This document shows positions 1,761-38,237 of a stretch of DNA of 64,000 nt, piece by piece. This stretch comes from Candidatus Nanoarchaeia archaeon (GTDB taxonomy: Bacteria; Patescibacteriota; Microgenomatia; Woykebacterales; RBG-16-39-9b), in assembly GCA_036514715.1 (NCBI GenBank), contig DATBWR010000004.1, forward strand, positions 9,147 through 73,146, in the 5' to 3' direction. The position numbers and the translations under genes are program-made. Position 1 is the stretch's first letter. Each line of letters begins with the position of its first letter. A model generated the notes under the pieces. That model was not told the origin of the DNA and made no database searches. It was given only the letters and a program-made list of their open reading frames with translations.

Positions 1761-3179
1761 ATGCCCAAAGAAAAAACCAAAGTTAGGACTAGGATTGCTC
1801 CGTCACCAACCGGTAGTCCCCACATCGGCACCGCCTACGCAGCCTTATTTAACTATTGTTTTGCCAAGCAAAACAGTGGTGATTTTGTCTTGCGTATTGA
1901 GGATACTGATCGAGCTAGGTTAGTAGAAGGTTCCGAAGAGGAGATTTATGAAGCTTTGAAGTGGCTTGGTTTGGAGCCGGACGAAAGTCCACAAAAGGAG
2001 GGAAAATTTGGACCCTATCGCCAATCGGAAAGGCTCGCAATTTATCGACAACAGCTAGAAAATTTGGTCAAGGAAGGTAAAGCCTATTACTGTGATTGTT
2101 CTCCCGATCGTCTTGAAAAATTGCGCAAAGAACAGCTCTCTAGAGGAGAAGCCCCTCATTACGATCAAAAATGTCGGCAAGAGCCACCCAAAAAGATTAA
2201 TAAGGTTGTAGTACGTTTGGCTGTTCCCCAAACAGGTGAGACTGTAGTTGAGGACAAAATCCATGGTAAAGTGGTCTTCCAAAACAACCTCATCGACGAT
2301 CAAGTACTCTTAAAATCAGATGGCTACCCAACTTACCACCTAGCTAGTGTGGTTGACGATCACTTAATGGAAATCTCCCATGTAATCCGCGCCGAAGAGT
2401 GGCTTTCCAGCACTCCAAAACATGTTTTACTTTACCAAGCCTTTGGTTGGAACTTACCCGAATTTGCCCACCTGCCGCTGCTTCGCAACCCTGATCGCAG
2501 TAAAATTAGTAAACGCAAGAATCCGGTAGCGATCAATTTTTATCGTGAACAAGGTTATTTACCAGAGGCACTACTTAATTTCTTGGGCTTGATGGGTTGG
2601 TCAATGCCAGACGGTAGGGAAATTTTTAGTTTGGATGAGATGGTTAAAAACTTTACCTTCGAAAGAGTTGATCCAAGCGGTCCGGTCTTTGACATAGATA
2701 AACTTTCTTGGTTGAACGGTGAATACATCCGTAAGTTGTCTGACCGGCAGTTGCTTGAGCGGTTAAAACCGTACACAAAATATTCACCAGAGCAAGTTCT
2801 CAAGGTCGTACCGCTGGTTAAAGAAAGACTAAAAAAACTATCAGAGTTCAACTCTCTGACTAGCTATTTTTTTGAAGAGCAGATTGATTTTGATCCTAAA
2901 TTGGCGGTGATAAAAAATCACTCAGAGGAAACGGTCAAGATTTATGAGGATATTAAGCAAACCTTTACTGGTTTGGAACCTTGGGATAAGAATTCTTTGG
3001 AGAAAGCTCTTGAAGTAAAACCACAAGAGTACGGTGTTTCTAAGACAGAGCTTTTTCAAAGTATCCGAGGTACTGTTACCGGTGGATTAACCTCACCTCC
3101 GCTCTACGACACCTTAGAGATGATCGGCAAAGAAAGGGTTGTTTCCAGAATTGGAACAGCGGTAGAGGAACTTAAGTAA
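1761..3179 (+). CDS. gltX: glutamyl-tRNA synthetase
   Basis: Class I signature PSPTGSPHIGTAYAALFNY (HIGH motif) and KISKR (KMSKS motif). A TATAAT at 1749-1754 lies 7 nt before the ATG. Confidence 0.9.
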   Translation: MPKEKTKVRTRIAPSPTGSPHIGTAYAALFNYCFAKQNSGDFVLRIEDTDRARLVEGSEEEIYEALKWLGLEPDESPQKEGKFGPYRQSERLAIYRQQLENLVKEGKAYYCDCSPDRLEKLRKEQLSRGEAPHYDQKCRQEPPKKINKVVVRLAVPQTGETVVEDKIHGKVVFQNNLIDDQVLLKSDGYPTYHLASVVDDHLMEISHVIRAEEWLSSTPKHVLLYQAFGWNLPEFAHLPLLRNPDRSKISKRKNPVAINFYREQGYLPEALLNFLGLMGWSMPDGREIFSLDEMVKNFTFERVDPSGPVFDIDKLSWLNGEYIRKLSDRQLLERLKPYTKYSPEQVLKVVPLVKERLKKLSEFNSLTSYFFEEQIDFDPKLAVIKNHSEETVKIYEDIKQTFTGLEPWDKNSLEKALEVKPQEYGVSKTELFQSIRGTVTGGLTSPPLYDTLEMIGKERVVSRIGTAVEELK

Positions 3180-3207
3180 ATAAGCTTAATCTGTTATCAT
3201 AATTTTA

Positions 3208-4494
3208 ATGGACCAACCTGCCTACGCCAGTGAACTGCAAGAAGCTCAAGAAAGAGAAAAACACTTACGCTTTGAAAAAGTTGCCGAAAAGTCAACTTAC
3301 TTAGTTATTTTCGGCGGCTTACTACTGACCTTCCTACCGCTCTCTTTTCCTATCCAGAGAGGGAGCCTTTACATTCTTTTCACCCTTGCCCTGCTAGTTG
3401 CTTTTTTCTGGTTTAGATTGTTGCCCCAGAGCTTTATCAGCCCTCTTAAATCGTTTCTTTACTTCTTATTCTCAGTCAGTTTTATTTACCTAGGTGTTCA
3501 TTTTACGAACGGTATTCAAAGTTTTGTAGTTTTCATCTTTTATCTTTCAGTTTTGAGAGCAGCTGCGTTCATTAATCTGGTTGGTTTTGTTGCGATAGTC
3601 TTATTAATAACGACCCTACTATTAATTGAGGCCTATTTTTTTAACACCTACCTGTCTTTAGACCAACGCCTAAGTTTATGGGCGTTACACGCATGGGCTC
3701 TAGCGGTCATTGCTATCTTTGGCAGGTACATTTTTGACAAAGAGCAAAAAGCGGAGAGTTTGGAGGAGTCAGCTAAGCTTAAGACCGCCAAACAGATTGA
3801 TGCGGTAAAAAACGAGTTCGTTTTCTTGATATCAAAAAAACTCAAAAAACCACTCCTACTTTTAGAAAGCTACTTAGCAACCGCCCTTAAGAGCGTGGAT
3901 CAAAATTGGAGTAAGGAGCTGAGTGATTTCCTTAGTAAAGCCAGCGAAAATTCCCAGCGACTGGCTAATCTGGTCAACGATCTTTCTGATCTTTCTTCTG
4001 TCGAAAGCCAAAAACTGAGCTTAGAGAAAAAACCAGTGGATCTCAACCAAGTTGTTGGTTCTACCTTGTCCGATTTCAACATGCGGGCTGCCGAAAAGAA
4101 CATTACCCTCAGTTATCAACCTACAGGCGACAAGGTGCTGGTTTTGGCGGACCAGTCGCGCTTGCACGAAATTCTAGCCAACTTGGTTGATAACGCCATT
4201 AAGTATTCACCCAACTCAGCCGTAATACAAGTTAGTTTTGGACACGATGGAAAAATTGCCCAGGTGAATATTAAGGACAACGGTTTGGGAATTCCGGATG
4301 AGGCTAAAAACCATCTTTTTGAGAAGTTTTACCGGGTCAACCGCAGTAATAGTGAACCAAAAGGGACAGGCTTAGGGTTGTTTGTCACCAAAGAGTTAGT
4401 AGAAAGGCAAGGCGGTAAAGTTTGGTTTGAGAGCAAGGTAAACGAGGGAACTAATTTTCACTTTACCCTACCGTTAGCAGGTAATTATGGATAA
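3208..4494 (+). CDS. sensor histidine kinase (multi-TM N-terminus, HisKA, HATPase_c)
   Basis: N-terminal TM helices, then an H-box-like region and ATPase N/G boxes: NLVDNAIKYSP, DNGLGIP, GTGLGLFV. Confidence 0.85.
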   Translation: MDQPAYASELQEAQEREKHLRFEKVAEKSTYLVIFGGLLLTFLPLSFPIQRGSLYILFTLALLVAFFWFRLLPQSFISPLKSFLYFLFSVSFIYLGVHFTNGIQSFVVFIFYLSVLRAAAFINLVGFVAIVLLITTLLLIEAYFFNTYLSLDQRLSLWALHAWALAVIAIFGRYIFDKEQKAESLEESAKLKTAKQIDAVKNEFVFLISKKLKKPLLLLESYLATALKSVDQNWSKELSDFLSKASENSQRLANLVNDLSDLSSVESQKLSLEKKPVDLNQVVGSTLSDFNMRAAEKNITLSYQPTGDKVLVLADQSRLHEILANLVDNAIKYSPNSAVIQVSFGHDGKIAQVNIKDNGLGIPDEAKNHLFEKFYRVNRSNSEPKGTGLGLFVTKELVERQGGKVWFESKVNEGTNFHFTLPLAGNYG

Positions 4495-5785
4495 AGATAC
4501 TTCTGGTAAAGCTAATAACTCCGCTGATAAGACCGTTATCTGGAAAAGGCTTTTTCTAGCAACCGCGCTGGTTTTGGTAGGAGTATTAGTAGCCAGCTTG
4601 CCTTTACCTCACCCCCTGACTTCGCGTCCGGTTACTACTAATTTAACCGGTGTTTTACTAACCCTTGGCAGCCTGCTAGCAGGTTTGGTAGTTTGGTGGA
4701 GCCTGCTGGCGCAAAAGTTCTCACCGCAAGTGAGAACTTTTGTAGAGGTGCTCATTTACTTGACAGCTATTAACATAGTAGTCAAGTTTACCGGTGGTCT
4801 CTATAGTTACTTCACTTTTCTTTATTTCCTCCCCATCCTTTATTCAGCCAGTAACTTTACTGCTAGGTACAGCTGGGCGGTTTTTATTTTTACAGCCCTT
4901 ATTATGAGTTTTCACCTGCTCGATAATAACGGAAGCTCATTTTCCGGCTCTGTCAGCGCACTAATCCTTAATTTGTTTGGGGTTTGGCTGGTTAACGGTT
5001 TGGGTAGGTCTCTAGCAGAACAGCTCGAACTTATTCATCAACGTCAAGTTGAAATTCAACTCGAACAACTCAATAAACTTGACAAGATTAAAGACGAATT
5101 TGTCTTTATTATCGCTCACGAACTGAGAAGCCCAATTACAGCTATCAGGGGTTATTTGGAATTGATAACAACCGATAGTGCCTTGAAGATTTCGGAAAGC
5201 CTAAAAAGTCTTTTGCAGAAGAGCTTTAATACCAGTACTAAGTTGGCTAATTTAGTAGGGTTGCTGCTGGAGATTGCTCGGATTGAGACCGGTAAAATTC
5301 GCTTCTACTATCAAAAAATCGATCTTCGCGACTCTTTGGATTTTGTTACGGCAGCTCTTAGAAGCGAGGCGGCCCAAAAGGATATCCAAATTACTACTCA
5401 GGTTGAAAAAGAAAATATTGTTTCAGTTGACAAAGAACGTTTGGAGGAAATTCTTAACATCATTATTGGTAACGCTATTGAGTACACGAGAGAGCATGGG
5501 AAAATCTTGATCAGTAGTCAGTCAACTGAGAAAGAGATTATCCTCTCAATTTCTGATACTGGAGTCGGTATCGCACCGGACAAAAAGGACAAGATTTTCG
5601 AAAAAATTTCTTCTGATGATGATCAAAACGGAGAAGCAACAGTTAAAGAGTATAGGATAAGCTTATACGTTGCCAGGCAGTTGTTGGCTCTCATGAAAGG
5701 CGATATAACTTGTGAGAGTGTTGTGGGTAGGGGAACGACCTTTAACCTTTCGCTACCCCGCTATTGGAGTTGGGGGACCCCTTAG
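4487..5785 (+). CDS. sensor histidine kinase
   Basis: H-box FVFIIAHELRSPITAIRGYLEL. N/G boxes IIGNAIEYT, DTGVGI, GRGTTFNLSLP. Overlaps the upstream kinase gene by 8 nt. Confidence 0.85.
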   Translation: MDKDTSGKANNSADKTVIWKRLFLATALVLVGVLVASLPLPHPLTSRPVTTNLTGVLLTLGSLLAGLVVWWSLLAQKFSPQVRTFVEVLIYLTAINIVVKFTGGLYSYFTFLYFLPILYSASNFTARYSWAVFIFTALIMSFHLLDNNGSSFSGSVSALILNLFGVWLVNGLGRSLAEQLELIHQRQVEIQLEQLNKLDKIKDEFVFIIAHELRSPITAIRGYLELITTDSALKISESLKSLLQKSFNTSTKLANLVGLLLEIARIETGKIRFYYQKIDLRDSLDFVTAALRSEAAQKDIQITTQVEKENIVSVDKERLEEILNIIIGNAIEYTREHGKILISSQSTEKEIILSISDTGVGIAPDKKDKIFEKISSDDDQNGEATVKEYRISLYVARQLLALMKGDITCESVVGRGTTFNLSLPRYWSWGTP

Positions 5786-7073
5786 AAGGAACCGACCCGT
5801 GCTAATTAGAAACCGAAATCAGCTTGTCAGCAGCTCTTTAAGAAAGAAAGCCTTGGCAATAATTGAAGCGGGACTAGCCTCCATTGATACTAAAAAAATC
5901 ATTCACGAGAATTTGACCCTTAAGAAAAACTTCCTTTTTATCAAAGACGCCCATTACGATTTAGACAGATATCGACAGGTTTTTTTGGTGGCCGTTGGGA
6001 AAAGCGCTCTGTCTGCCTCTTGTGAAATTGGAGAGATTTTAGGAAAAAAACTTAAAAGCGGAGTTGTTTTGTCACTAAAAGAAGGTAAAGTACCAAAAAT
6101 GGAAGTTTTTTCTTGCACCCACCCCGCACCTTCCGAGCAGAATGTCAAAGCAACCATTAAGGCACAAGAACTTTTAGAGTCGGTTGGGCAGGACGACTTG
6201 TTAATAGTTGTTGTTTCAGGTGGTGGCTCCTCCATGCTAACAGCACCCTATAAGATCAGCATAAGCGAAAAAGCCTCTGTTGCTAAAGTCCTGATGAGCT
6301 CTGGGGCTACTATTGAAGAGCTAAACACAGTTAGGAAGCATCTATCCCTAGTTAAGGGAGGGCGTCTGGCAGAACTTGCTTATCCGGCAACTATTGTTAC
6401 TTTGATCTTTTCTGATGTAGCTACAAATAACCTTAGCACTATTGCTTCCGGTCCAACAGTAATGGATCATACTACCAACGGGCAGGCAAGAGCAATTTTA
6501 GATAAATATAAAGTTCAAGAAGTCCTTAAATTGCCAAAACTTGATCTAAGTGAAACACCAAAAGAAACTAAATTTTTCCATAAAGTTCAACACCTCTTGT
6601 TAGTTGATAATTCTGTTGCCCTCAATGCAATGGTGGAGCAAGCGGGGAATTTAGGGTTCGCGGTAGAAGTTTACTCTAGAAACTTGGAGGGTGAAGCCCG
6701 CAAAGTAGGAAAAACCCTTTTGCAACAGTCCAAGAAAAACCAGGCTTTACTAGCCGCTGGAGAAACCACCGTTCATGTAGAAGGCTCAGGTAAGGGAGGG
6801 CGCTGTCAGGAGTTGGTGTTGGGAAGCCTTGAAAACCTAAGGGACAACCAAGTTCTAGTGGCAATTGGGACTGATGGGCATGATAATTCCGATTTTGCCG
6901 GCGCTATTGCCGATACCTCGACTCTCAAAAAGGCGGCCGGTAAAGCCCTTGACTACCAAACATTTTTAAAAAACAACGACTCTTTTAATTTCTTCAAAAA
7001 AGTTGGCGATGGTATTGAAACCGGACCACTTCCCTCCAATGTTGCCGACTTAATGCTTGTGCTGACTTCTTGA
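5712..7073 (+). CDS. glycerate kinase, MOFRL/GckA family (start codon uncertain, possibly TTG near 5853)
   Basis: LLIVVVSGGGSSMLTAP and IEELNTVRKHLSLVKGGRLAE are typical of glycerate 2-kinase / hydroxypyruvate reductase-like MOFRL proteins. The annotated start overlaps the upstream gene by 74 nt, so the real start is probably downstream. Confidence 0.7.
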   Translation: MRVLWVGERPLTFRYPAIGVGGPLRRNRPVLIRNRNQLVSSSLRKKALAIIEAGLASIDTKKIIHENLTLKKNFLFIKDAHYDLDRYRQVFLVAVGKSALSASCEIGEILGKKLKSGVVLSLKEGKVPKMEVFSCTHPAPSEQNVKATIKAQELLESVGQDDLLIVVVSGGGSSMLTAPYKISISEKASVAKVLMSSGATIEELNTVRKHLSLVKGGRLAELAYPATIVTLIFSDVATNNLSTIASGPTVMDHTTNGQARAILDKYKVQEVLKLPKLDLSETPKETKFFHKVQHLLLVDNSVALNAMVEQAGNLGFAVEVYSRNLEGEARKVGKTLLQQSKKNQALLAAGETTVHVEGSGKGGRCQELVLGSLENLRDNQVLVAIGTDGHDNSDFAGAIADTSTLKKAAGKALDYQTFLKNNDSFNFFKKVGDGIETGPLPSNVADLMLVLTS

Positions 7074-7140
7074 GCAACTTTTAAAAGCGAGTCATTGGAT
7101 AAAGAAATACCAGTGCCAACGCGAAACCTTGACTATAAGC

Positions 7141-7410
7141 TGTATAATCTGTTTAGCACTCAAAAACTAAAAAAAAGGGAATTTATCCGGGACATAGCTA
7201 ATTACCTATGGGGCGAAAAAGCCCTCCGTTTCTTCGGAAACGGGGACCGGTCTGTCTTGGCTGGTAAGAGACCAGCTTCAAACGGTTGTTAAGCGGAAGA
7301 CAGCGCGCTAATTAACAATCGATCTTGCACCCTCAAAACCCGAGCCACTGCGGTGGGGTTGGGTAGTTGTCTGACAGAGGGGCTCCCTGTTACCCGAATC
7401 TTCCACAGGT
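7141..7410 (+). ncRNA. putative tracrRNA-like structured RNA with a 3' anti-repeat (strand tentative)
   Basis: Extended -10 TGTATAAT at 7141-7148. Hairpin CCGTTTC-TTCG-GAAACGG (UUCG tetraloop) at about 7225-7242. Nested stems CTGTCTT...AAGACAG and GCTGGT-aagag-ACCAGC. The stretch 7381-7404 (GGCTCCCTGTTACCCGAATCTTCC) is complementary to repeat nt 6-26, giving 9-bp and 8-bp duplexes. It ends 49 nt before the first repeat. Confidence 0.5.
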
Positions 7411-7453
7411 TCAAGAAGCACGACTCCCGAAAGATTTCAAGCCTAACGGGGTT

Positions 7454-7706
7454 GTTGCATTCGGGTGCAAAACAGGGAGTAGAGTGTAACTTTCAAAAGC
7501 GCTGCCAGAACTATCAACACTAATAAGTTGCATTCGGGTGCAAAACAGGGAGTAGAGTGTAACAACAATCTTGATCATGAAACCACTCTTCATGTAAGTT
7601 GCATTCGGGTGCAAAACAGGGAGTAGAGTGTAACTCAAAAACAATGCTTCCGGTGTTGGCCAGTTTGATGTTGCATTCGGGTGCAAAACAGGGAGTAGAG
7701 TGTAAC
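7454..7706 (+). CRISPR. CRISPR array: 4 identical 37-nt repeats and 3 spacers of 36, 34 and 35 nt (transcribed strand uncertain)
   Basis: Repeat GTTGCATTCGGGTGCAAAACAGGGAGTAGAGTGTAAC occurs at 7454-7490, 7527-7563, 7598-7634 and 7670-7706. It carries an internal palindrome TTGCA-TTCGGG-TGCAA. Spacers are unique within the array. Confidence 0.95.
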
Positions 7707-7710
7707 AAAA

Positions 7711-7750
7711 TGGAGATGGTTTTCCCTTTACCATCTCCACTTTCTTCTTG
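7711..7750 (+). terminator. rho-independent terminator-like hairpin after the array
   Basis: Stem TGGAGATGG (7711-7719) pairs with CCATCTCCA (7731-7739) around an 11-nt loop, followed by CTTTCTTCTT. Confidence 0.6.
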
Positions 7751-7777
7751 ACTTCTCAATCATTTTTCAGTTAAAAC
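7748..7777 (+). promoter_or_regulatory. candidate sigma70-like promoter for cas1
   Basis: TTGACT (7748-7753), 17-nt spacer, TTAAAA (7771-7776). The cas1 start codon (GTG 7784 or ATG 7790) follows closely, so the leader is short or absent. Confidence 0.4.
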
Positions 7778-7783
7778 ATAAGT

Positions 7784-8782
7784 GTGTTAATGCACGAAAC
7801 CCTTTTGATCGATAAACCAGGCACTTTTCTGGGTAAGAAAAGCAGAAGAGTGGTGGTCAAAACTCCTGATTCGACAGAAGAATTTCCTTTGCTAAAAATT
7901 AAAGAGATTAACCTTGTTGGAACCGGTATTTCTTTGTCCGACGACCTAGTTTACCAGGCAGTTAAGCAAGAAGTGCAGATAAATTTTCAGGACAGATTAG
8001 GTAGGGTTTACGCTAGTATAGTCTCACCCTTTCTTAATCAAACAGTGGCAACTGTTAGGGCTCAGATAGGAGCGGAAGACACAGAAAAAGCCGCTGGTCT
8101 TGCCAAGGAGATCGTTCTGGTCAAAATTGCCAACCAGGAAAAACTACTGAGGTATTTTCTTAAGCACCAAAGGGTTTATTATCCGACCAACGCAGAGAAA
8201 ATTGGAGAGTTGAGCAACACCCTAGACTCTTTGGGTGAACAACTGCTAGTTACAAGCTTCAAACCGCTTAATTATCATAATCAATTATTTTCTTTTGAAG
8301 GCAGAGCCTCGGACAGTTATTGGCGAGGGGTTAAGTTGTTGATAGGAGGCAAAGTTGATTTCCCGGGTCGTAAAGGTAGAGGCGCGAAAGATTTGGTGAA
8401 CAGTCTGCTCAATTACGGTTACGCCATTTTGTACTCGAGGGTTTTAGCAGCATTGTTGGCCAACGGCCTTTTACCCTTCGCCGGATTTCTTCACAAAGAC
8501 CGTTCTGGGAAAAGTTCTCTTGTTTTGGATATTATGGAAATCTTTCGCCAGAAGATTGTTGATGAAACTTTGTTGATCTTTTTGAACAAGAAAAAATTGG
8601 AACCTACACTTGACCAAAACACCCTTTTTGCCTTTTCACAAAAAGTAGTTGAGAGATTTTCCTCAACCGGAAGGTTCGTTGATAACAAAAACTACACAGT
8701 GGAGAAAATAATCAGCCTGCAGGTTCAAGGTATTGCCGCCTATCTACGCGGAAATAAAAATCTAAATTTAGTTTCTTTATGA
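7784..8782 (+). CDS. cas1: CRISPR-associated endonuclease Cas1
   Basis: Cas1 hallmark block DLVNSLLNYGYAILYSRVLAALLANGLLPFAGFLHKDRSGKSSLVLDIMEIFRQKIVDE. Start is GTG at 7784 or ATG at 7790. Confidence 0.92.
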   Translation: MLMHETLLIDKPGTFLGKKSRRVVVKTPDSTEEFPLLKIKEINLVGTGISLSDDLVYQAVKQEVQINFQDRLGRVYASIVSPFLNQTVATVRAQIGAEDTEKAAGLAKEIVLVKIANQEKLLRYFLKHQRVYYPTNAEKIGELSNTLDSLGEQLLVTSFKPLNYHNQLFSFEGRASDSYWRGVKLLIGGKVDFPGRKGRGAKDLVNSLLNYGYAILYSRVLAALLANGLLPFAGFLHKDRSGKSSLVLDIMEIFRQKIVDETLLIFLNKKKLEPTLDQNTLFAFSQKVVERFSSTGRFVDNKNYTVEKIISLQVQGIAAYLRGNKNLNLVSL

Positions 8783-9033
8783 AAGTTTTGGTAGTCTACG
8801 ATATTTCCCAAGACAAGGAGCGGGGAAAAGTTGCCGAGATTTGTCTGGATTACGGTCTGGAAAGAATTCAGAAGAGTGCTTTTCTTGGCGAACTTAGCGA
8901 AACTTTACGACAGCGGTTGGTGGGAGAATTGAAGGAAAAGCTAGTAGGTAAAACCTTTAACCTGCAGGTATTTGAGTTAGATAAGAATTCTGCTAAGAAG
9001 AGATTAGTTTTTGAGGCAAAAAAGAAGGGGTAA
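8779..9033 (+). CDS. cas2: CRISPR-associated endoribonuclease Cas2
   Basis: 84 aa beginning MKVLVVYDISQDKERGKVAEI...QKSAF. Overlaps cas1 by 4 nt (ATGA). Confidence 0.9.
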   Translation: MKVLVVYDISQDKERGKVAEICLDYGLERIQKSAFLGELSETLRQRLVGELKEKLVGKTFNLQVFELDKNSAKKRLVFEAKKKG

Positions 9034-9056
9034 TAGCTATCTGGCTACTACCCCTT
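9025..9056. terminator. bidirectional terminator hairpin between the convergent cas2 and effector genes
   Basis: AAGGGGTA (9025-9032) pairs with TACCCCTT (9049-9056) around a 16-nt loop. The hairpin spans both stop codons. It is T-rich on the minus-strand side (CTTCTTTTTTGC). Confidence 0.6.
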
Positions 9057-10497
9057 TGACGAATAACTCCTGTGCTCGACGGGCCAAGTTTAAGGCAGTG
9101 TTGAAACCGGTGTTGTGCCGTGTTCCGCAATTACCGCAATAAACAGTGGGTCCCTTCAGAGAGATTGGTTGATCACCTTCTTTATTGGCCGCTCCGCAAG
9201 TTGAACAAAGCATCTTGGCTGTTGCCGAGTAGACCGAATAAGGTTTAGGCAAACCTTCCTTAACCGCTTTGTAGCTGGTCAGATCGGCGAGTTTCCCAAA
9301 TGGCCAGTATGACAACCTCAGGTTGAGCCGGGGATTGTATCTACCTTTGGGGATGTTGCCTACCTGCTCGACGGCAGGAACGGATTTGAACCTTAAGGCT
9401 TCTTCGACAATCTGTGCCACCTGACGGTAGTGGAAAGTTTCCAGCTCCTGGGAAAAGGGTCCGCCTCGCCGGCGCAGACGTTCCAACCGAGCAAAGTAGG
9501 TTTTCTCGTACCGCCTTGCTGGTTCCTGACGTTGGTGGACGACATTTCCATCACGATTGATAACTACCACGGTTACTAGATGTTCCAAACCAAAAGATAC
9601 ACCCATGAAGTTTTCCACTTCAAGTAGTGGTTTGGTGGGGATCTCACAAGCGACATTGACGAAAATTCTGCCGTTACGTACCAAGAGTTCCACTCGTTTG
9701 GGTTGGAAGTCTTTCTCACGCAGTAGCACTTCCGAGAGCCACTTTTTGTCTGAACGACGGTGAGTTGCTTTCCAAGTGGGTGGGTTATTCTCGCCTCGTA
9801 TGAAAGTAGCCTCACCCCACTTATCAAACTGAAGTGGAAGTAACAAACCGCTTGTTGAGCGGCTTAGACGGGCAATTTCTTTCTCTCCAAAAACCTGCAG
9901 CGCTGGTCCGCGGTCGGGATCGTAGTTATTGGTGATGTCTTCCTGGTGACTACCTCTTGGGAAAAGAGGAAGGTAGAGATAAAGCTGGCCGGTAATTGAT
10001 TGTTCGTAGCAAACGAACGCCCCTGTCCAGACGATTGGAAACTGATCGCCTATACTTGGATAGCTGGTTTTATCCGTAAATTGCGGGTCCAGTTTCCGCT
10101 TCGCATACGAGAGCAGCAAGTCTGCGACCTTGTGGCGCAAACCGTTTTTAACAGCGGAACCAAGTTGGTAACCCCTGAAAGGGGCAATCTCTTCCAGCTT
10201 TCTTAAGACCCGCATATGTCCAGCCGTTCTTTTGATAGGCCGACCCTCTTTATCAAGAAGTTTTTTGCCGTCTGGATCAGTAGGTTCCCACCAAAGTAGT
10301 TCTTGGTAAGGTTCGAACCAACGCAAGCAGTCGGCAGCTGCCTTTCGAACCGATTGGTTAACCCCAAGTAGAAGGGACAATTTTTTCTGGGGCAACCATT
10401 GCCGCCGCCAAAGCTCGCTGCGGGTTCGATTTTCCGGTAAGTCGTTGAGGGGCAAAGACATTGCCAAAGTCAGGTGCAGAGTGTTTTCTTCTGCCAA
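9037..10497 (-). CDS. miniature TnpB/Cas12f(Cas14)-like type V effector candidate (486 aa) with apparently degenerate RuvC catalytic motifs
   Basis: RuvC-I-like MGVSFGLEHLVTVVV. RuvC-II-like AVEQVGNI. LSYWPFGKLADLTSYKAVKEGLP block. Zinc finger CSTCG...CGNCG, followed by HNTGFNTALNLARRA (cf. HxDxNAAxNIARR). The canonical Asp positions read S and G/T. Good SD sequence AAAGGAGAGAG before the ATG. Coding sequence has higher GC (~50%) than cas1/cas2. Confidence 0.7.
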   Translation of the reverse strand: MAEENTLHLTLAMSLPLNDLPENRTRSELWRRQWLPQKKLSLLLGVNQSVRKAAADCLRWFEPYQELLWWEPTDPDGKKLLDKEGRPIKRTAGHMRVLRKLEEIAPFRGYQLGSAVKNGLRHKVADLLLSYAKRKLDPQFTDKTSYPSIGDQFPIVWTGAFVCYEQSITGQLYLYLPLFPRGSHQEDITNNYDPDRGPALQVFGEKEIARLSRSTSGLLLPLQFDKWGEATFIRGENNPPTWKATHRRSDKKWLSEVLLREKDFQPKRVELLVRNGRIFVNVACEIPTKPLLEVENFMGVSFGLEHLVTVVVINRDGNVVHQRQEPARRYEKTYFARLERLRRRGGPFSQELETFHYRQVAQIVEEALRFKSVPAVEQVGNIPKGRYNPRLNLRLSYWPFGKLADLTSYKAVKEGLPKPYSVYSATAKMLCSTCGAANKEGDQPISLKGPTVYCGNCGTRHNTGFNTALNLARRAQELFVKGVVAR

Positions 10498-10553
10498 TTT
10501 CTCTCTCCTTTGGAAAATTGGTATTTAGTTTTGGTGTGCTTGAGGCAAGCCAA

Positions 10554-10582
10554 AGTATATACTACTATAAGACAAAATGCAA
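10554..10582 (-). promoter_or_regulatory. near-consensus sigma70-type promoter driving the effector gene
   Basis: On the minus strand: TTGCAT (10582-10577), 17-nt spacer, TATACT (10559-10554), about 50 nt upstream of the effector ATG. Confidence 0.55.
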
Positions 10583-10628
10583 TCGGTCAGTGTTTGGGTT
10601 TGTGGAAAGATTTGGATAAAAAAAGAAC

Positions 10629-11201
10629 TTAAAGACGGGTTTGGCAAGAGTCGCAGACTGCCCGCGCAACAAATTGGTGGCTGTCAGGGCTAGTTGAGTC
10701 GGCTCGGAGTTCAAAAACAACATTCGCACCGCAGTGAGGACACTTGTAAAAATTCAAAAAGGGGTAATCTTGGGAGAGTTTGATCACGTCCCCGTAACTG
10801 TCACGTGGAGAAATACGGTAAGTTCTTAACACTGTAGCGTCGGTCAACTCTTTAATCTTGGAAATAATCTCGTTAGGAGAAAAGTTGGTTTTAAGCAAGT
10901 AATCGCGAGCTCCTAAGGAAAGCGCTTTTTTAATATTCTCATCATTGGCAACATTACTTAAAACAATTACCGGGATTGTTTTGAGTTTGGGGTTAGCAGC
11001 TAGAAACTCTAAAACTTGGAGACCGCTCACCTTTGGCATCAAAATATCAAGAAGGATAAGATCAGGGCTAACAGAAGCGATTTTATCAATCGCCTCCTGA
11101 CCGTCAGCAGCGGTTTCAACTAGGTAACCCTCAAAGGTCAGCCGGTCGGAATAAATTTTTCGGAGAATTTCTTCATCATCCGCGATTAATATTTTTTTCA
11201 T
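10629..11201 (-). CDS. response regulator: REC domain fused to a C-terminal Cys4 zinc ribbon (no HTH output domain)
   Basis: REC motifs ILIADDEE, DLILLDILMP, VIVLSNVAN. C-terminus CPHCGANVVFELRADSTSPDSHQFVARAVCDSCQTRL. Confidence 0.8.
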   Translation of the reverse strand: MKKILIADDEEILRKIYSDRLTFEGYLVETAADGQEAIDKIASVSPDLILLDILMPKVSGLQVLEFLAANPKLKTIPVIVLSNVANDENIKKALSLGARDYLLKTNFSPNEIISKIKELTDATVLRTYRISPRDSYGDVIKLSQDYPFLNFYKCPHCGANVVFELRADSTSPDSHQFVARAVCDSCQTRL

Positions 11202-12622
11202 GGCAAGTTTTTAACCTGTGGTAAAACGAAAGCAAAGGTGCTTCCTTTTCCTTCCTCAGAGGCAAACCAAAGCTTACCCTTTTGTTTCTCAACTAACTGT
11301 TTGACTGTGTACAATCCTAATCCGGTGCCGGTAGAAGCTTTACTGAGAGGATTTTCAACTCGGGAAAACTTCTTAAACAGATCTTTCTGGCGATTTTTTG
11401 GGATGCCAACACCACTATCCTTGACCAAAAACCAAACACCCTCTGAGTTAGTCATGACCCTGGCTTGTATTGTACCGCCCTCAAAAGTGTATTTCAAGGC
11501 ATTATCAAGAAGGTTGCTCATGATTTCCTTAGTTTTGTCGGGGTCAACCCAGACCTCGTGTTGATTGTTGTCCAGAGACAGAAGAAGATTTTGGGATTTC
11601 CTACCTGCCTGCATTTTTAAGCTTTCGACAACCTCTTTGGCAATTGTGCCTAGATCAACTGCTTGGATCTTGAACTGAATTCTTCCTTGTTCGAGTCGGG
11701 AGATATTCAGTAAATCATTAACTAGATTGATCATGCGGTCATTAGCCACGGAAAGCAAGTTTAAATATTCTGTTTGTTTCGAATTTAAAGGTCCGGCCAC
11801 ATTGTCGGCCAAGAGTTCAATTAAGCCTTTGATTTCCGAAAGCGGCGTGCGTAGCTGGTGTGAAGCAATGGAGATAAGGTCATTACGCATCTCCTCGAGT
11901 TCCTTTTCTCGGCTGACATCACGAAAAACGACAATACCGCCAACGATAATACCTTTTTGATTTCTGATCGGTGAGGAGTTAACCGCAACGGGTACTCTGT
12001 TCTGATTAGCTGTGACCATTACCGTTTCAGAGGGCAAGTTGAAAGACTTGCCTTCCAGTAAAACCTTGTCAATGAAGCTTCCGTATGGAGTTTTAGTTTT
12101 TAGATCAACGAATTGCAAAATCTGGTCATAGCGCTGCCTCAGAACCTGATCTCTGGAGAAACCCACCAGCTGCTCAGCCGCGTGGTTAAAGACAATTATT
12201 TCACTTCTTAAATTGACGGCGAAAACGCCTTCACCAACGTTTAGTAGAATTGCTTCCGCTCGGTCTTTGGATTCTTCAGCAACCCTAATTCTTTCTTTGA
12301 GAGCGTTGCGGAAGGTCTCTAGTGACCTGACTACTTCCCCAAACTCATCACTACTTTTTGACTCAATTGTCTCCTCCAGATTAGTTGTTATTAAGCGCAG
12401 AAGGAGATGAGTGTAAAACCCAAGTTTCTTTTTAGCGATGCTGGTTAAGATAAAAGCCAGTATTACAAACAAGGAAAGAAAAACAGCCAAGATCGGCAGA
12501 AGATTAATAACAACAAAACTTTCAGGAAGCAGCCAGATGACAATGAGCTCTCCTAAGGTAAGGAGAGAAACGATTAAAACTGTTTTTGGAACAATACCGA
12601 CTTTAAACATGAGCAGACTCAA
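11198..12622 (-). CDS. sensor histidine kinase with PAS domain (2 TM, PAS, HisKA, HATPase_c)
   Basis: PAS-like NVGEGVFAVNLRSEIIVFNHAAEQLVGFSRDQV. H-box SIASHQLRTPLSEIKGLIELL. N/G boxes LLDNALKYT, DSGVGIP, GTGLGLYTVKQLVE. Its stop overlaps the response-regulator start by 4 nt. Start is TTG at 12622 or ATG at 12610. Confidence 0.85.
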   Translation of the reverse strand: MSLLMFKVGIVPKTVLIVSLLTLGELIVIWLLPESFVVINLLPILAVFLSLFVILAFILTSIAKKKLGFYTHLLLRLITTNLEETIESKSSDEFGEVVRSLETFRNALKERIRVAEESKDRAEAILLNVGEGVFAVNLRSEIIVFNHAAEQLVGFSRDQVLRQRYDQILQFVDLKTKTPYGSFIDKVLLEGKSFNLPSETVMVTANQNRVPVAVNSSPIRNQKGIIVGGIVVFRDVSREKELEEMRNDLISIASHQLRTPLSEIKGLIELLADNVAGPLNSKQTEYLNLLSVANDRMINLVNDLLNISRLEQGRIQFKIQAVDLGTIAKEVVESLKMQAGRKSQNLLLSLDNNQHEVWVDPDKTKEIMSNLLDNALKYTFEGGTIQARVMTNSEGVWFLVKDSGVGIPKNRQKDLFKKFSRVENPLSKASTGTGLGLYTVKQLVEKQKGKLWFASEEGKGSTFAFVLPQVKNLP

Positions 12623-25762: not shown

Positions 25763-28387
25763 ATGTCGACTAAAGCCAAACCTAAATCCCACGGAAAGGA
25801 GTTTTCTTCCGTAAGGAAGCAGTCCCCGCAGGGGTTTAAGTTTTCGGAAAAGCTGCAGAAAAAGTTGGAAAGCGTAATTGCCGACGAGGCTAAAACTCAG
25901 CTAGATGGGATCAGGCAAAAAGTTTTTATGGACCGCTACTCCTTAAAAGATGGCGAAGGTAAAGCGGTGGAAGAACATCCCGAACAAATGTGGCGTCGGG
26001 TGGCAGCCGGTTTAGCGCAGGTTGAAAAAACTGCCCAAGATCAAAAGGACTGGACCCAAAAATTTTATTCAGCTCTCAAAGATTTTAAATATGTACCCGG
26101 CGGTCGGGTCCTTTCCGGGGCCGGTACTCCCTATGAGGTAACTTTTTACAATTGTTTTGTTATTCCCTCACCCCACGATTCCCGCAACGGCATTGTTGAT
26201 AACTTGAAATTAATGATCGATATTATGAGCCGCTCCGGTGGAGTTGGCATCAACCTTTCTTCTCTTCGTCCACGAGGAGCTCGGGTCAAGAAAGTTAACG
26301 GCACTTCCTCCGGGCCGGTCAATTGGGCAGAGCTTTATTCAACCGCTACGACTGATGTTATTCAACAAGGTGGATCTCGACGTGGTGCCTTGATGCTGAT
26401 GATTGATGACTGGCACCCGGATATTGAAGAGTTTATCGAAGTTAAAAAAGACCTTTCCCGAATTAATGGAGCTAACCTTTCAGTTTGCGCTTCGGATGAG
26501 TTTATGGAAGCAGTGAAAAAGAACGCCGATTGGGACCTTTACTTCCCTGATCTCACCGATCCGGATTACGACCGGGTTTGGGACGGCGATATTGAAAAAT
26601 GGAAAGCTCTAGGCAAAAAAGTCGTTCTCTACAAAACTGTTAAAGCAGCCGAAGTTTGGGAAAAGATTTGTCAGGCGGCTTGGGCTTCGGCCGAACCGGG
26701 TTTGCACTTTATTGGTCGGAGTAACTCTCGTAGCAACACTTGGTATTTTGAAAAACTCATTGCCACTAACCCCTGCGGCGAACAGCCTCTTGGGGCTTGG
26801 GCGGTATGTAATTTAGGGGCGATGAATTTGTCAGCTTTCGTTAACGAAAACAGCGAGTTTGACTACCAGGATTTGGAAGACAAGGTGCGGATTGCTATCC
26901 GGATGATGGACAATGTTATTGATGCAACCGGTTACTACTTCCCGGAAAATAAGGCTCAACAGATGGGCATCCGACGCACTGGTTTAGGAACCATGGGTTT
27001 GGGCGATGCTTTAATTAAAATGAAGTTGCGTTACGGTGCAGATGAGGCTCAAGGCGTAATTGAAAAAATCTACAAGACCATTCGTGATGCTGCCTACAGT
27101 GAAAGCGCTGCCCTTTCAGTTGAAAAAGGATCTTTCCCCAATTACAAAAAAGCAAAATACTTACAAGGTTGGTTCATCAAAAAACTTCCTAAAGAAATTC
27201 GTGATCTGATCGCCAAAAACGGCATCCGCAACGCAGTTCTTCTTACCCAAGCTCCCACCGGAACCACCAGTTTACTTTCCGGTGTCTCTAGCGGCATTGA
27301 GCCGGTTTATGATTTTGCCATGGTACGTCGGGATCGCACTGGTGAACACGTTCTTTATCACCCCCTTTATGAAGCTTGGAAAAAAGCCAATCCAGAGGTA
27401 GAGGTTGCTCCGGACTATTTTGTTAGTGCTAACGATTTGACTCCTGAAGATCATGTAAAAGTACAGGCCCTGGTACAGGATTACACTGATTCTTCTATTT
27501 CTAAGACTGTTAACGCACCCAATGCCCACACGGTTGAGGAAGTTCGACAGCTTTACATGCAGGCTTATGAACTGGGGTGCAAGGGCGTTACCTACATGAG
27601 GGACGGTTCCCGCGAAGGAGTGCTTTCTCACGAAGCCGGAGAGAAAACTAGTAGTGAGCACTCTGCAGCGGCTACCCTCCAACCGGTCTACTTGCGAAAG
27701 AGACCCGATTATCTTCACGGAGTGACGCGGAGGATTGCAACTCCAGTGGGACACGCCTTTGTGACTATTAATGAAGATGAGGCTGGTAATCCTTTTGAAG
27801 TTTTCATCAACGTTGGCAAGGCCGGCAGCGATATCACTGCGGATGCGGAAGCAATCGGTCGGTTAATTTCTTTGGCGCTACGTATCCCTTCGAATTACTC
27901 GCCCGCCGAAGTAGTGCAACAAGTGGTTAACCAACTCTCCGGAATTGGTGGCAGCAGTTCCCGTGGTTTTGGTATTGACCGCATCCACTCACTAGCCGAT
28001 GCCCTTTCCAAGGTCTTGGCAGAATATACTGGAAAGGGCAGCACCTACCCCTCTGTCGAAGAAGGAAAGGTAGCAGCTACTAACGGTAACGGTTTGCCTG
28101 CAACTAACGGGCATACTAATGGCAACACCAACGGTCAAAATAACGGGCACACAAGGGACGGTCAGGCAATTGTTCAAGCTAAAGAGTCGGTCGAAGTAGG
28201 TGAAGCCCCTGCCCTGATAAGCGAGCTTTCAGGAGGGCAAATTTTGCAGGCTTCAGGTGTTGAAAGTGAAAAGCCAATGGGCTTGCAGCCCAAGCGCTTT
28301 GACCTTTGCCCCAAATGTGGAGTGGCTTCCTTTGTTCACGAAGAAGGTTGCAGTAAGTGCATGAACTGCGGCCACTCCGAGTGCTAG
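25763..28387 (+). CDS. nrdJ: adenosylcobalamin-dependent (class II) ribonucleotide reductase
   Basis: NPCGEQPL active-site loop and a C-terminal Cys cluster CPKCG...CSKCMNCGHSEC. Low-complexity insert ATNGNGLPATNGHTNGNTNGQNNGHT. Confidence 0.9.
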   Translation: MSTKAKPKSHGKEFSSVRKQSPQGFKFSEKLQKKLESVIADEAKTQLDGIRQKVFMDRYSLKDGEGKAVEEHPEQMWRRVAAGLAQVEKTAQDQKDWTQKFYSALKDFKYVPGGRVLSGAGTPYEVTFYNCFVIPSPHDSRNGIVDNLKLMIDIMSRSGGVGINLSSLRPRGARVKKVNGTSSGPVNWAELYSTATTDVIQQGGSRRGALMLMIDDWHPDIEEFIEVKKDLSRINGANLSVCASDEFMEAVKKNADWDLYFPDLTDPDYDRVWDGDIEKWKALGKKVVLYKTVKAAEVWEKICQAAWASAEPGLHFIGRSNSRSNTWYFEKLIATNPCGEQPLGAWAVCNLGAMNLSAFVNENSEFDYQDLEDKVRIAIRMMDNVIDATGYYFPENKAQQMGIRRTGLGTMGLGDALIKMKLRYGADEAQGVIEKIYKTIRDAAYSESAALSVEKGSFPNYKKAKYLQGWFIKKLPKEIRDLIAKNGIRNAVLLTQAPTGTTSLLSGVSSGIEPVYDFAMVRRDRTGEHVLYHPLYEAWKKANPEVEVAPDYFVSANDLTPEDHVKVQALVQDYTDSSISKTVNAPNAHTVEEVRQLYMQAYELGCKGVTYMRDGSREGVLSHEAGEKTSSEHSAAATLQPVYLRKRPDYLHGVTRRIATPVGHAFVTINEDEAGNPFEVFINVGKAGSDITADAEAIGRLISLALRIPSNYSPAEVVQQVVNQLSGIGGSSSRGFGIDRIHSLADALSKVLAEYTGKGSTYPSVEEGKVAATNGNGLPATNGHTNGNTNGQNNGHTRDGQAIVQAKESVEVGEAPALISELSGGQILQASGVESEKPMGLQPKRFDLCPKCGVASFVHEEGCSKCMNCGHSEC

Positions 28388-28439
28388 TTGACAAGACTTT
28401 AACAAACCTTTAGAGTGAGTATACTTTAAAAATTTAGAG

Positions 28440-28545
28440 CAAAGGATTAATTGGTGAAAGGCCGTGGAATTCGGCCGGACTGCCGGTACTGTTATACCCA
28501 GAACCCAACCTTTGTGTTCCTTCGAGCAAGGGAGGTGTTGATGAG
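28440..28545 (+). ncRNA. structured leader, possible cobalamin-riboswitch-like element (low confidence)
   Basis: GGTGAAAGG, hairpin GGCCG-UGGAAUU-CGGCC (cf. the GUGAAAAUC loop of B12 elements), and GCCGGUACUGU (cf. GCCACUGU). It lies immediately upstream of the terminator at 28554-28590. Confidence 0.3.
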
Positions 28546-28618: not shown

Positions 28619-29041
28619 ATGATGGATTTTGTTAGAAAGAATTTACTGTTGGTTGTTGCGGCTCTTGTTATCTTGGTTGGTGGAGGTTGGTATGTTGTCG
28701 ACCAGAACAAAAACACTCCAGAGCAAAATACCCAGACCTCTCAAGAAAAGAAAACTCAAGCCACAATTACTGTTGACGACGGTACTGGTGCTAAAACTTA
28801 CACAGTTGAGAACGTTGAAGGTAAAACTGCTCTGGAAGTTACTCAGATGGCTACCAGTGAGGTTGAAATGACTGGTGAGGGCACTAATGCCTACATCACC
28901 GCCATCAACGGTCGCGAAGCTTCAAACGACAAGAAAGAGTATTGGAAGTTGGTAATCAACGGCAGCGATGCTCAGGTCGGTGCTGGTAGTTACGTTGTAC
29001 AAGACGGTGATACTATCGCTTGGGAAATTGCGACGTATTAA
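28619..29041 (+). CDS. DUF4430-like protein (transcobalamin beta-domain-like; putative B12-binding), N-terminal TM/signal anchor
   Basis: C-terminus EYWKLVINGSDAQVGAGSYVVQDGDTIAWEI matches the W.y.vNG...y.l.dGD.I.W motif. Confidence 0.55.
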   Translation: MMDFVRKNLLLVVAALVILVGGGWYVVDQNKNTPEQNTQTSQEKKTQATITVDDGTGAKTYTVENVEGKTALEVTQMATSEVEMTGEGTNAYITAINGREASNDKKEYWKLVINGSDAQVGAGSYVVQDGDTIAWEIATY

Positions 29042-36449: not shown

Positions 36450-36494
36450 TTTACCATTTCTAGGCTTAGAAATCGAATTTTCTTGGCAGCTAGG

Positions 36495-36520
36495 GATATA
36501 TGAATAGTTATTCATATATC
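36495..36520. promoter_or_regulatory. palindrome copy 3 (26 bp) between the divergent methyltransferase and uppS genes
   Basis: GATATATGAATA-GT-TATTCATATATC. TATAAT at 36528-36533 follows, then ATG at 36541. Confidence 0.7.
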
Positions 36521-38094: not shown

Positions 38095-38150
38095 GCCAGC
38101 GATATCGGGTTTTCATCCCAGGAGACCTGCGGGTTTGAGCTGCGGAGCAA
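38095..38150 (+). pseudogene. partial tRNA-Glu-like duplicate (anticodon arm identical, acceptor and T arm degenerate)
   Basis: GATATCGGGTTTTCATCCCAGGAGA differs from the downstream tRNA at one position (CCCA vs CCCG). The following GGGTTTGAGCTGCGG cannot form a T-stem. Confidence 0.4.
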
Positions 38151-38160
38151 CTAAAAATTT

Positions 38161-38237
38161 GGCGCGTTCGTCTAGAGGCCTAGGATATCGGGTTTTCATC
38201 CCGGAGATCAGGGGTTCGAATCCCCTACGCGCTACCA
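38161..38237 (+). tRNA. tRNA-Glu (anticodon UUC), CCA encoded
   Basis: GGCGCGTTCGTCTAGAGGCCTAGGATATCGGGTTTTCATCCCGGAGATCAGGGGTTCGAATCCCCTACGCGCTACCA, with canonical arms and a G1-U72 wobble pair. Confidence 0.9.

Follow-up and report, generated by a model that had tools for sequence, protein, structure and literature searches.

The window, as the whole 64,000-nt stretch of DNA analysed in this study is called here, holds a CRISPR array, adjacent cas1 and cas2 genes, and a gene for a Cas12f-like effector that is convergent with them. A glycerate-kinase gene lies upstream of the array and is followed by 380 nt of non-coding DNA, in which a putative tracrRNA was delimited. The features, in window positions, are as follows.

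5712–7073: glycerate-kinase gene, upstream of the array
7121–7148, plus strand: promoter-like region, with TTGACT at 7129–7134 and TATAAT at 7143–7148 at a non-canonical spacing
7189–7381, plus strand: putative tracrRNA scaffold, conserved in seven loci and carrying the motif ACCCTCAAAACC
7193–7210, plus strand: predicted P1 hairpin of the tracrRNA
7252–7258/7297–7303 and 7283–7290/7314–7321, plus strand: two predicted helices that cross to form the tracrRNA pseudoknot
7330–7334/7377–7381, plus strand: predicted closing helix of the tracrRNA
7382–7399, plus strand: anti-repeat GCTCCCTGTTACCCGAAT, which would pair with repeat positions of about 6–13 and 18–27 and leave a 4-nt bulge in the repeat
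7400–7453, plus strand: linker from the anti-repeat to the first repeat, with the conserved motif GAATCTTCC; presumed leader for spacer integration
7454–7706, plus strand: CRISPR array of four repeats and three spacers; the conserved 3' half of the repeat would be the crRNA handle
7711–7749, plus strand: intrinsic terminator of the tracrRNA–array unit, a 10-bp hairpin followed by TTTCTTCTT
7784–8782, plus strand: cas1 (Pfam Cas_Cas1, 9.8e-62; TIGR00287, 217 bits)
8779–9033, plus strand: cas2 (Pfam CRISPR_Cas2, 2.1e-16; TIGR01573)
9025–9056, minus strand: terminator-like hairpin at the convergent cas2/effector junction, a 13-bp stem with six G-C pairs followed by CTTTTTT
9037–10497, minus strand: Cas12f-like effector Cas14u3 (486 aa), convergent with cas2

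The array and related loci

On the plus strand, four identical 37-nt repeats (GTTGCATTCGGGTGCAAAACAGGGAGTAGAGTGTAAC) lie at 7454–7490, 7527–7563, 7598–7634 and 7670–7706, separated by three unique spacers of 36, 34 and 35 nt (7491–7526, 7564–7597 and 7635–7669). These are the repeats and spacers that a preliminary description of this DNA had counted; its coordinates were confirmed, and repeat matches arose in 0 of 100 dinucleotide-preserving shuffles. The CCCGAAT that it had placed on the complementary strand is likewise there, since the plus-strand repeat contains ATTCGGG. No further copies of the repeat were found in the 64-kb window at up to three mismatches. The locus thus has at least three near-identical direct repeats of 23–50 nt with unique spacers of similar length, and cas genes beside them: cas1–cas2 begin 78 nt downstream of the array, and the Cas12f-like effector is convergent with them. 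The stretch 7454–7706 is a genuine CRISPR array. A degenerate terminal repeat is absent from it. By a hand count, the repeat shares 16 of 37 positions, mostly at the termini, with what we take to be the repeat of Un1Cas12f1. A second array-like repeat in the window, at 38101–38202, consists of a tRNA-Glu gene and a partial copy, and hence is no CRISPR array.

The rest of the window carries bacterial housekeeping genes, including a bacterial-type GluRS, an RF-1/PCRF release factor and an M23 peptidase, and two-component regulators surround the locus. An RNase III gene was not identified in the 64-kb window, and cas4 is absent from the locus. The same layout of effector, convergent cas2–cas1, array and conserved non-coding element was found on at least five independent contigs, namely L002 (whose array is the same as that of L004), L003, L005, L008 and L009 (whose contig is the same as that of L006); L007 and L010 show parts of it. 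Genes beyond cas1 and cas2 differ from locus to locus. The four loci whose Cas1 was aligned all keep the catalytic residues E172, H237 and D249/E252. Scans of genome and metagenome contigs added only four more loci, which indicates that the family is rare; the contigs of the nearest outgroup proteins are too short to show arrays. Arrays are short throughout the family, with about 1–6 spacers. The three spacers in the window, with the identical repeats, had earlier been read as consistent with a young or rarely adapting array; as arrays of this length are the norm in the family, they are no sign of youth.

Identity of the effector

The effector is identical at 486 of 486 residues to GenBank QBM02146.1, "CRISPR-associated protein Cas14u.3", an entry that presumably forms part of the Cas14 deposit of Harrington et al. 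2018. The source of that entry is labelled an archaeon, and the content of the window is bacterial. The window thus carries the very gene of that entry. Its locus is type V-F-like, a known kind of system, and both the system and the protein are already catalogued. The PADLOC profile PDLC01691 (Cas12f, CAS-V-F) matched the effector with E = 7e-102 and 340 bits, residues 9–477 covering profile positions 1–331 of 332. The Pfam Cas12f1-like_TNB family and, in part, the NCBIfam TnpB and Cas12f2 models were also matched, the Cas12f2 model at 57 bits against a cut-off of 450. The best sequence matches in the PDB were at about E = 1e-5.

An AlphaFold2 model of the effector (pLDDT 75, pTM 0.65) was used for a Foldseek search. 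Solved Cas12f structures came first for the predicted fold (E 2e-17 to 1e-14), with AsCas12f at the top (2e-17), followed by SpCas12f1 and Un1Cas12f1; the effector aligned with these three over its full length at 13–17% identity, with TM-scores of 0.43–0.55. CasX, Cas12g, the Bacteroidota dCas12f, Cas12o1, Cas12m2, Cas12p and Cas12k followed at lower ranks, and the PDB entries "Cas12o1" (E = 2e-8) and "Cas12p" (1e-6), names given by other groups, are distant. The top Foldseek matches are all Cas12 or TnpB proteins, as expected of a type V system with a single TnpB-derived effector that has a RuvC-like fold and a Zn-ribbon (TNB). The effector-profile match, the miniature size (within about 400–700 aa) and the Cas12f-like domain order point further to type V-F. 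The suggestion, made from the array alone, that the system is Cas12f-like was therefore sound: the neighbouring effector scores 340 bits against the PADLOC Cas12f profile, has a predicted Cas12f fold and is identical to Cas14u.3.

A word-index search gave a family of 12 full-length members, 41–67% identical and all from metagenomes, and the hosts look like groundwater bacteria. When 1.84 billion representatives were searched with a profile, only three clusters (at 50% identity) belonged to the family proper; beyond them, scores dropped steeply to proteins that share the RuvC half only. In the literature searched, to which Harrington et al. 2018 did not belong, no statement was found on the RuvC state, tracrRNA, array orientation or activity of Cas14u3.

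The RuvC site

The preliminary description, which left the effector unexamined, made no mention of RuvC inactivation. At the RuvC-I aspartate the effector has S301 (codon 9595–9597; GVSFG), opposite D191 of ISDra2 TnpB in the alignment, and at the RuvC-III aspartate it has G464 (codon 9106–9108; HNTGFNTA), opposite D361. The RuvC-II glutamate was placed at E377 (9367–9369) from the AVE[Q/T]VG motif in family alignments; an HMMER pairwise alignment sets E377 opposite TnpB E273, not E278. By predicted secondary structure, all three residues occupy canonical positions: S301 is part of the first strand of RuvC, E377 closes the fourth strand and G464 opens the final helix. The D-E-D triad that is intact in canonical outgroups (D/E/D) is broken in all 12 members of the family, in which RuvC-I carries S or A and RuvC-III carries G, N or T in place of the aspartates. 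In profile matches outside the family that have a recognisable motif, D is present at RuvC-I in 84 of 95 and at RuvC-III in 97 of 105, compared with 0/12 in the family. The nearest outgroup set has H, Q or R at RuvC-I and mostly keeps the RuvC-III aspartate; one of its members adjoins cas1. The Zn-ribbon CxxC...CxxC (C431, C434, C454, C457) is invariant across the family. Type V variants with an inactivated RuvC domain are still accepted within type V (PMC12669027).

Since two of the three RuvC carboxylates are replaced in every member, the effector most likely cannot cut DNA, and the family has most likely lost RuvC-type cleavage. That the effector is still a nuclease, with a rearranged or non-canonical active site or with a partner nuclease acting in trans, and destroys its targets as a conventional Cas12f/Cas14 does, appears rather unlikely with two carboxylates gone. 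Rearranged catalytic sites, probably still active, are documented across TnpB and Cas12 proteins (PMC10691335); E377 is kept in 11 of the 12 members, E366 is nearly invariant, and the residues of the nearest outgroups could mark an altered chemistry, not a dead one. However, no acidic residue within 290–486 is conserved besides E366 and E377, and the replacements vary (S or A; G, N or T), unlike a conserved alternative catalytic residue. Besides cas1 and cas2, no neighbour conserved across the loci could supply a nuclease.

Spacers and the case for immunity

The family arrays together contain 23 spacers, all unique and 32–38 nt long, and each locus carries different ones. The window spacers had no match in the 64-kb window at up to three mismatches and none above the level of shuffled spacers, in agreement with what had been noticed earlier by inspection. 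Against phage and plasmid collections, the 23 family spacers gave no protospacer, the single match having E = 1, which equals chance, and a scan of eight spacer seeds (23–24 nt) against IMG/VR gave none. When all spacers were compared with every family locus and with the flanks of their own loci, which cover a small part of each host genome, nothing exceeded chance. The search thus returned no match to a phage or plasmid, and no self-target in the window or the own-locus flanks either.

The retention of cas1–cas2 together with the turnover of spacers argues for immunity rather than for a fixed regulatory role. A regulatory role has published precedent (PMC13472631): the effector would have been exapted as a natural CRISPRi-like repressor or activator of host genes, as in dCas12f-sigmaE, in TldR and in the CRISPR-associated dCas12f cluster directed at efflux promoters. 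A dead RuvC site would suit such a role, as would the very short arrays, the absence of matches to known phages and plasmids, and the position of the window locus among two-component regulators. We nevertheless consider it quite unlikely for Cas14u3, because intact and conserved cas1–cas2 genes adjoin the array, spacers differ at every locus, and none of them matched above chance in the 64-kb window or the own-locus flanks, a small part of the host genomes. Neither a sigma factor nor a second effector was found beside the effector, no HTH partner is present, the neighbours vary between loci, and solo guide handles were not found.

The upstream RNA

The region of about 7189–7399 in the window was aligned with its counterparts in six other loci. 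Eight helices, both of those in the pseudoknot included, make up a structure that fits this alignment: 91.6% of cells are paired, compared with 35–51% in slid controls, compensatory changes occur at 30 of 48 pairs, and the observed pairing was reached in 0 of 500 shuffles. Rfam has no family for this RNA (E<=1 over 6800–10800; gathering threshold over the whole window), and a pseudoknotted tracrRNA family absent from that collection is now defined.

The anti-repeat forms a predicted duplex of 18 pairs with the repeat (-27.9 kcal/mol). With the full-length tracrRNA as input, RNAduplex did not tell cognate from non-cognate repeats by score, and the test was restricted to the homologous anti-repeat segment. 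In that test, the cognate assignment of anti-repeats to repeats in seven loci was the best of 5040 permutations, which indicates that the anti-repeat tracks the variable half of the repeat. A covarying structured RNA whose anti-repeat follows the repeat in seven loci is probably the repeat-pairing tracrRNA expected of a V-F system. The loop of P1 is UUGC where the repeat ends in GCAAC; in the window it is UUAC and the repeat ends in GUAAC. This one compensatory event suggests a four-base contact between the P1 loop and the repeat, like AR:R1 of Un1Cas12f1 (PMC8053092).

Compensatory evolution of the tracrRNA requires selection on the RNA, and the anti-repeats follow changes in the repeats. Both results make it very improbable that the locus is in decay and retains only an inactivated effector and a residual array that no longer have a function, even though the catalytic residues are lost and the array has only three spacers and no degenerate terminal repeat. 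The catalytic substitutions, moreover, are common to 12 full-length homologs that are 41–67% identical and have an invariant Zn-ribbon, and the active site of Cas1 is intact.

Strand of the array

The orientation of the array is resolved: it is read on the plus strand of the window, in the sense of cas1. Across loci, the repeat read on this strand has a conserved 3' half (GGAGAGTRGAGTGCAAC) and a variable 5' half, a pattern that fits a Cas12-type crRNA with its handle 5' of the spacer. Degenerate terminal repeats occur at the cas1-proximal end in L003, L005, L007 and L008, which places the leader on the opposite side. On the sense strand, a hairpin with a T-run stands within about 30–100 nt of the end of the last full repeat in 7/7 loci; between the tracrRNA and the array no terminator was found, so a single precursor is likely. 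In L003 and L009 a perfect TTGACA-16/17-TATAAT precedes the conserved RNA by 24–30 nt; at the homologous position L008 has TTGACT-17-TACGAT, and by eye L002 has TTGACA-17-TACAAT further upstream. In the window, a consensus promoter scanner called no promoter upstream of the tracrRNA. The antisense side of the arrays shows only weaker promoter-like matches (7–10 of 12). Compared with shuffles, the upstream RNA folds at z = -2.2 on the plus strand and z = -0.7 on the minus strand, and its helices contain 17 G.U cells versus 4 A.C cells, in a test that leans towards the strand used to derive the structure. The energies of the anti-repeat:repeat duplex are alike on both strands and do not discriminate between them.

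The preliminary description had favoured plus-strand transcription and left the strand ambiguous. Its preference is upheld by the repeat conservation, the degenerate repeats, the promoters and terminators, the folding and the G.U cells, and the downstream terminator that it reported is present as the hairpin and T-tract at 7711–7749. The plus-strand anti-repeat that it also cited does exist, at 7382–7399, but fails as an indicator of strand, complementarity being strand-symmetric. Transcription of the array from the minus strand had been kept as an option; in this effector sense it would give Cas12a-like crRNAs (hairpin TTGCA-CCCGAA-TGCAA beside the spacer) with no tracrRNA, and it is now scarcely credible: the window repeat does end on that strand in a 5-bp hairpin immediately before the spacer, the effector itself lies there and the duplex energies are similar for both strands, but this hairpin is unconserved and sits in the locus-variable half of the repeat, the conserved half would be spacer-distal, the degenerate repeats would become promoter-proximal and a minus-strand transcript of the effector would meet the terminator at 9056–9025 before the array, while the sense-strand terminators after the array in 7/7 loci, the promoters before the tracrRNA in most loci, the weaker promoter-like matches of the antisense side (7–10 of 12) and the tracrRNA structure all favour the plus strand.

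Proposed mechanism and significance

The reading preferred here is that the locus encodes a type V-F-like, tracrRNA-dependent and adaptation-competent system in which interference proceeds by RNA-guided DNA binding without cleavage; its probability is put at roughly 60%. A promoter upstream of about 7189 would drive one plus-strand transcript that comprises the tracrRNA, the linker and the array and ends at 7711–7749. The tracrRNA part, pseudoknotted and about 200 nt long (7189–7399), would be expected as a transcript of roughly 200–260 nt starting near 7155–7189. The anti-repeat at 7382–7399 would pair with the repeat over its variable 5' and middle portion to give a duplex for the host RNase III, as in other systems that use a tracrRNA, and the conserved 3' half of the repeat would remain 5' of the spacer as a crRNA handle of about 17–20 nt, ending ...GAGUGUAAC. 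The 486-aa effector would then bind the dual RNA, and the spacer would guide it to complementary DNA. With S301 and G464 in the RuvC site no cutting is predicted, and binding alone may block the transcription or replication of the invader, as in Cas12m and Cas12c. Cas1–Cas2 would add spacers to the array at its tracrRNA-proximal end. The steps that we infer are co-transcription, processing by RNase III, binding to DNA and silencing by occupancy.

For the family as a whole, the chances seem evenly balanced that Cas14u3 represents a distinct and very rare Cas12f-like lineage that has wholly lost RuvC catalysis, has kept a tracrRNA, working adaptation and spacer turnover, and provides nuclease-dead adaptive immunity. 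If Cas14u3 is truly DNase-dead in a system with cas1–cas2, it would be an independent and much smaller example of the few CRISPR defences that bind and do not cut, and spacer acquisition could be maintained without any effector nuclease activity. A natural dCas of 486 aa with a defined tracrRNA could also serve CRISPRi or base editing as a compact chassis. Cas14u3 at times appears in lists of Cas14 nucleases, and cutting should not be expected of it. The strand of the array, for its part, is settled by this analysis.

Comparison with known systems

The V-F nucleases Cas12f/Cas14 (Un1Cas12f1, AsCas12f and SpCas12f1) resemble the system in their miniature effector, which shares the predicted fold over the full length and the PADLOC V-F profile, in their adjacent cas1–cas2, and in a 37-nt repeat with GTTGCA...AAC termini. 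Both kinds would have a long structured tracrRNA with an anti-repeat, possibly with a loop contact like AR:R1 (PMC8053092). Cas14u3 differs in being 13–17% identical to the solved proteins, in its score with the NCBIfam Cas12f2 model (57 vs 450 bits), and in that its family lacks the RuvC-I and RuvC-III aspartates. V-F systems are characterised by RNA-guided DNA cleavage, with a homodimer on one guide; the sequence of Cas14u3 predicts no cleavage by RuvC. The loci differ as well: here there is no cas4, the effector is convergent with cas1–cas2, and the tracrRNA is found beyond the array.

Silencing by RNA-guided DNA binding without cutting, as proposed here, has been demonstrated for Cas12m (V-M) and Cas12c (V-C), and other type V variants with an inactivated RuvC are predicted to act likewise (PMC10442227; PMC12669027). 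Like the present loci, Cas12c loci keep cas1. A specific sequence relationship to Cas12m is lacking, with E = 0.24 to Cas12m4a in the PDB, and the fold match to Cas12m2 (E = 7e-8) is weaker than that to Cas12f. In the Cas12m and Cas12c effectors the RuvC domain still works and serves to process pre-crRNA, and Cas12m is not known to need a tracrRNA. In contrast, the RuvC site of Cas14u3 is gutted, so that the protein would be unable to process its own crRNA by RuvC, and a tracrRNA is present; the system does not belong to V-M.

Cas12k of V-K CAST and other inactivated Cas12 proteins recruited by transposons also combine an inactivated RuvC domain with a tracrRNA-dependent guide. The Cas12k fold match is weak (E of about 1e-6), cas1–cas2 are present here, and no Tn7- or Mu-like transposition genes were found in the window or the related loci. 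With tnsB, tnsC and tniQ absent from them all, membership in V-K/CAST was rejected.

The dCas12f-sigmaE systems and the CRISPR-associated dCas12f cluster resemble Cas14u3 as naturally nuclease-dead, Cas12f-like proteins that use guide RNAs. The dCas12f proteins of Hoffmann et al. come from Bacteroidota, are close to canonical Cas12f, and have a C-terminal truncation that removes RuvC-III; their guides are single gRNAs, no tracrRNA having been detected, and they are linked to rpoE/HTH genes, mostly without CRISPR and cas1–cas2 (PMC13472631). Cas14u3, in contrast, has a complete C-terminus and Zn-ribbon, comes with a tracrRNA and cas1–cas2, and has no sigma gene nearby; in the fold comparison, the solved dCas12f structure scores less well (E = 9e-9) than active Cas12f does. 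Cas14u3 is accordingly no member of dCas12f-sigmaE and represents a separate lineage.

Altae-Tran et al. and Makarova et al. found that RuvC inactivation and the capture of adaptation modules occurred many times in type V (PMC10691335, PMC12669027). As these surveys drew on JGI and NCBI data, they probably include the Cas14u3 family under a V-U, V-O or V-P label, names that cover type V groups with a predicted inactivation of RuvC. What this study adds to them, on the evidence of conserved sequence, is that Cas14u3 most likely represents a nuclease-dead effector family within a tracrRNA-dependent, adaptation-competent system.

Gene neighbourhood and composition

The window's CRISPR locus lies between genes of two-component signalling type, and a bacterial release-factor gene stands farther along:

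3208-5785 (+), two tandem histidine-kinase genes, on one side of the locus
10629-12622 (-), histidine kinase and response regulator, on the other side
59722-60798, RF-1/PCRF release factor, a bacterial marker

The response regulator within 10629-12622 (-) matched a C-terminal Zn-ribbon domain weakly and below threshold. These histidine-kinase/response-regulator surroundings were not found at the related loci. At 49.9% G+C, the effector gene (9037-10497) lies above both the window as a whole (43.9%) and its own flanks (about 38-45%), a difference that may reflect past horizontal acquisition.

Protein entries identical to the effector are labelled "[uncultured archaeon]" and "[Candidatus Nanoarchaeia archaeon]" at NCBI, and the related locus L003 is labelled "uncultured Gammaproteobacteria". 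The window itself carries further bacterial markers besides the release factor, namely an M23 peptidase, a bacterial-type GluRS, sigma70-like promoters and intrinsic terminators. These taxonomic labels look generic or mis-binned.

Other elements

Three further features were recorded in the window:

28439-28515 (+), AdoCbl-II (cobalamin) riboswitch, scoring above the Rfam gathering threshold
34974-36515 (-), N6/N4 DNA methyltransferase and Mrr-like restriction-endonuclease domain, fused in one 513-aa ORF
38161-38237 (+), tRNA-Glu, within the stretch 38095-38237

The riboswitch is located just past a ribonucleotide-reductase gene (25763-28387) and ahead of a 140-aa ORF (28619-29041). The methyltransferase-Mrr fusion could be a second defence gene of the window. 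The anticodon arm of the tRNA-Glu recurs in part about 70 nt upstream of the gene (GATATCGGGTTTTCATCCC), and a simple repeat-array search marked the two together as array-like; this partial copy could be left over from a duplicated tRNA or an integration site. On L007, a contig with a related locus, the SufB gene (2811-5387) harbours an intein that includes a LAGLIDADG homing-endonuclease domain.

Nearest outgroup proteins

The proteins nearest to the Cas14u3 family outside it are the following:

P0014, P0015, P0018, P0019, P0021 and P0025, 510-572 aa; contig stretch recorded with them, L015 309-2963

The RuvC-I aspartate is absent from these proteins too, with H, Q or R in its place, and the RuvC-III aspartate is mostly retained. 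One of them, P0019, is encoded directly downstream of a cas1 gene. Together they may form a further type V lineage, related to the Cas14u3 family and likewise altered in its RuvC.

Promoter and tracrRNA

Upstream of the tracrRNA, both in the window (7129-7148) and at the related locus L005, a TTGAC(T/A) hexamer occurs only 7-8 nt ahead of a perfect TATAAT, rather than 16-18 nt. The hexamers of L005 are in the sense of cas1; at the remaining related loci the spacing is canonical.

The first hairpin of the tracrRNA has a loop (7198-7205) complementary to the 3' end of the repeat (e.g. 7484-7490), and the paired bases co-vary, with UUAC:GUAA in the window and UUGC:GCAA at the other loci. This pairing between tracrRNA loop and repeat end resembles the AR:R1 contact in the sgRNA of Un1Cas12f1, on the basis of a single compensatory event.
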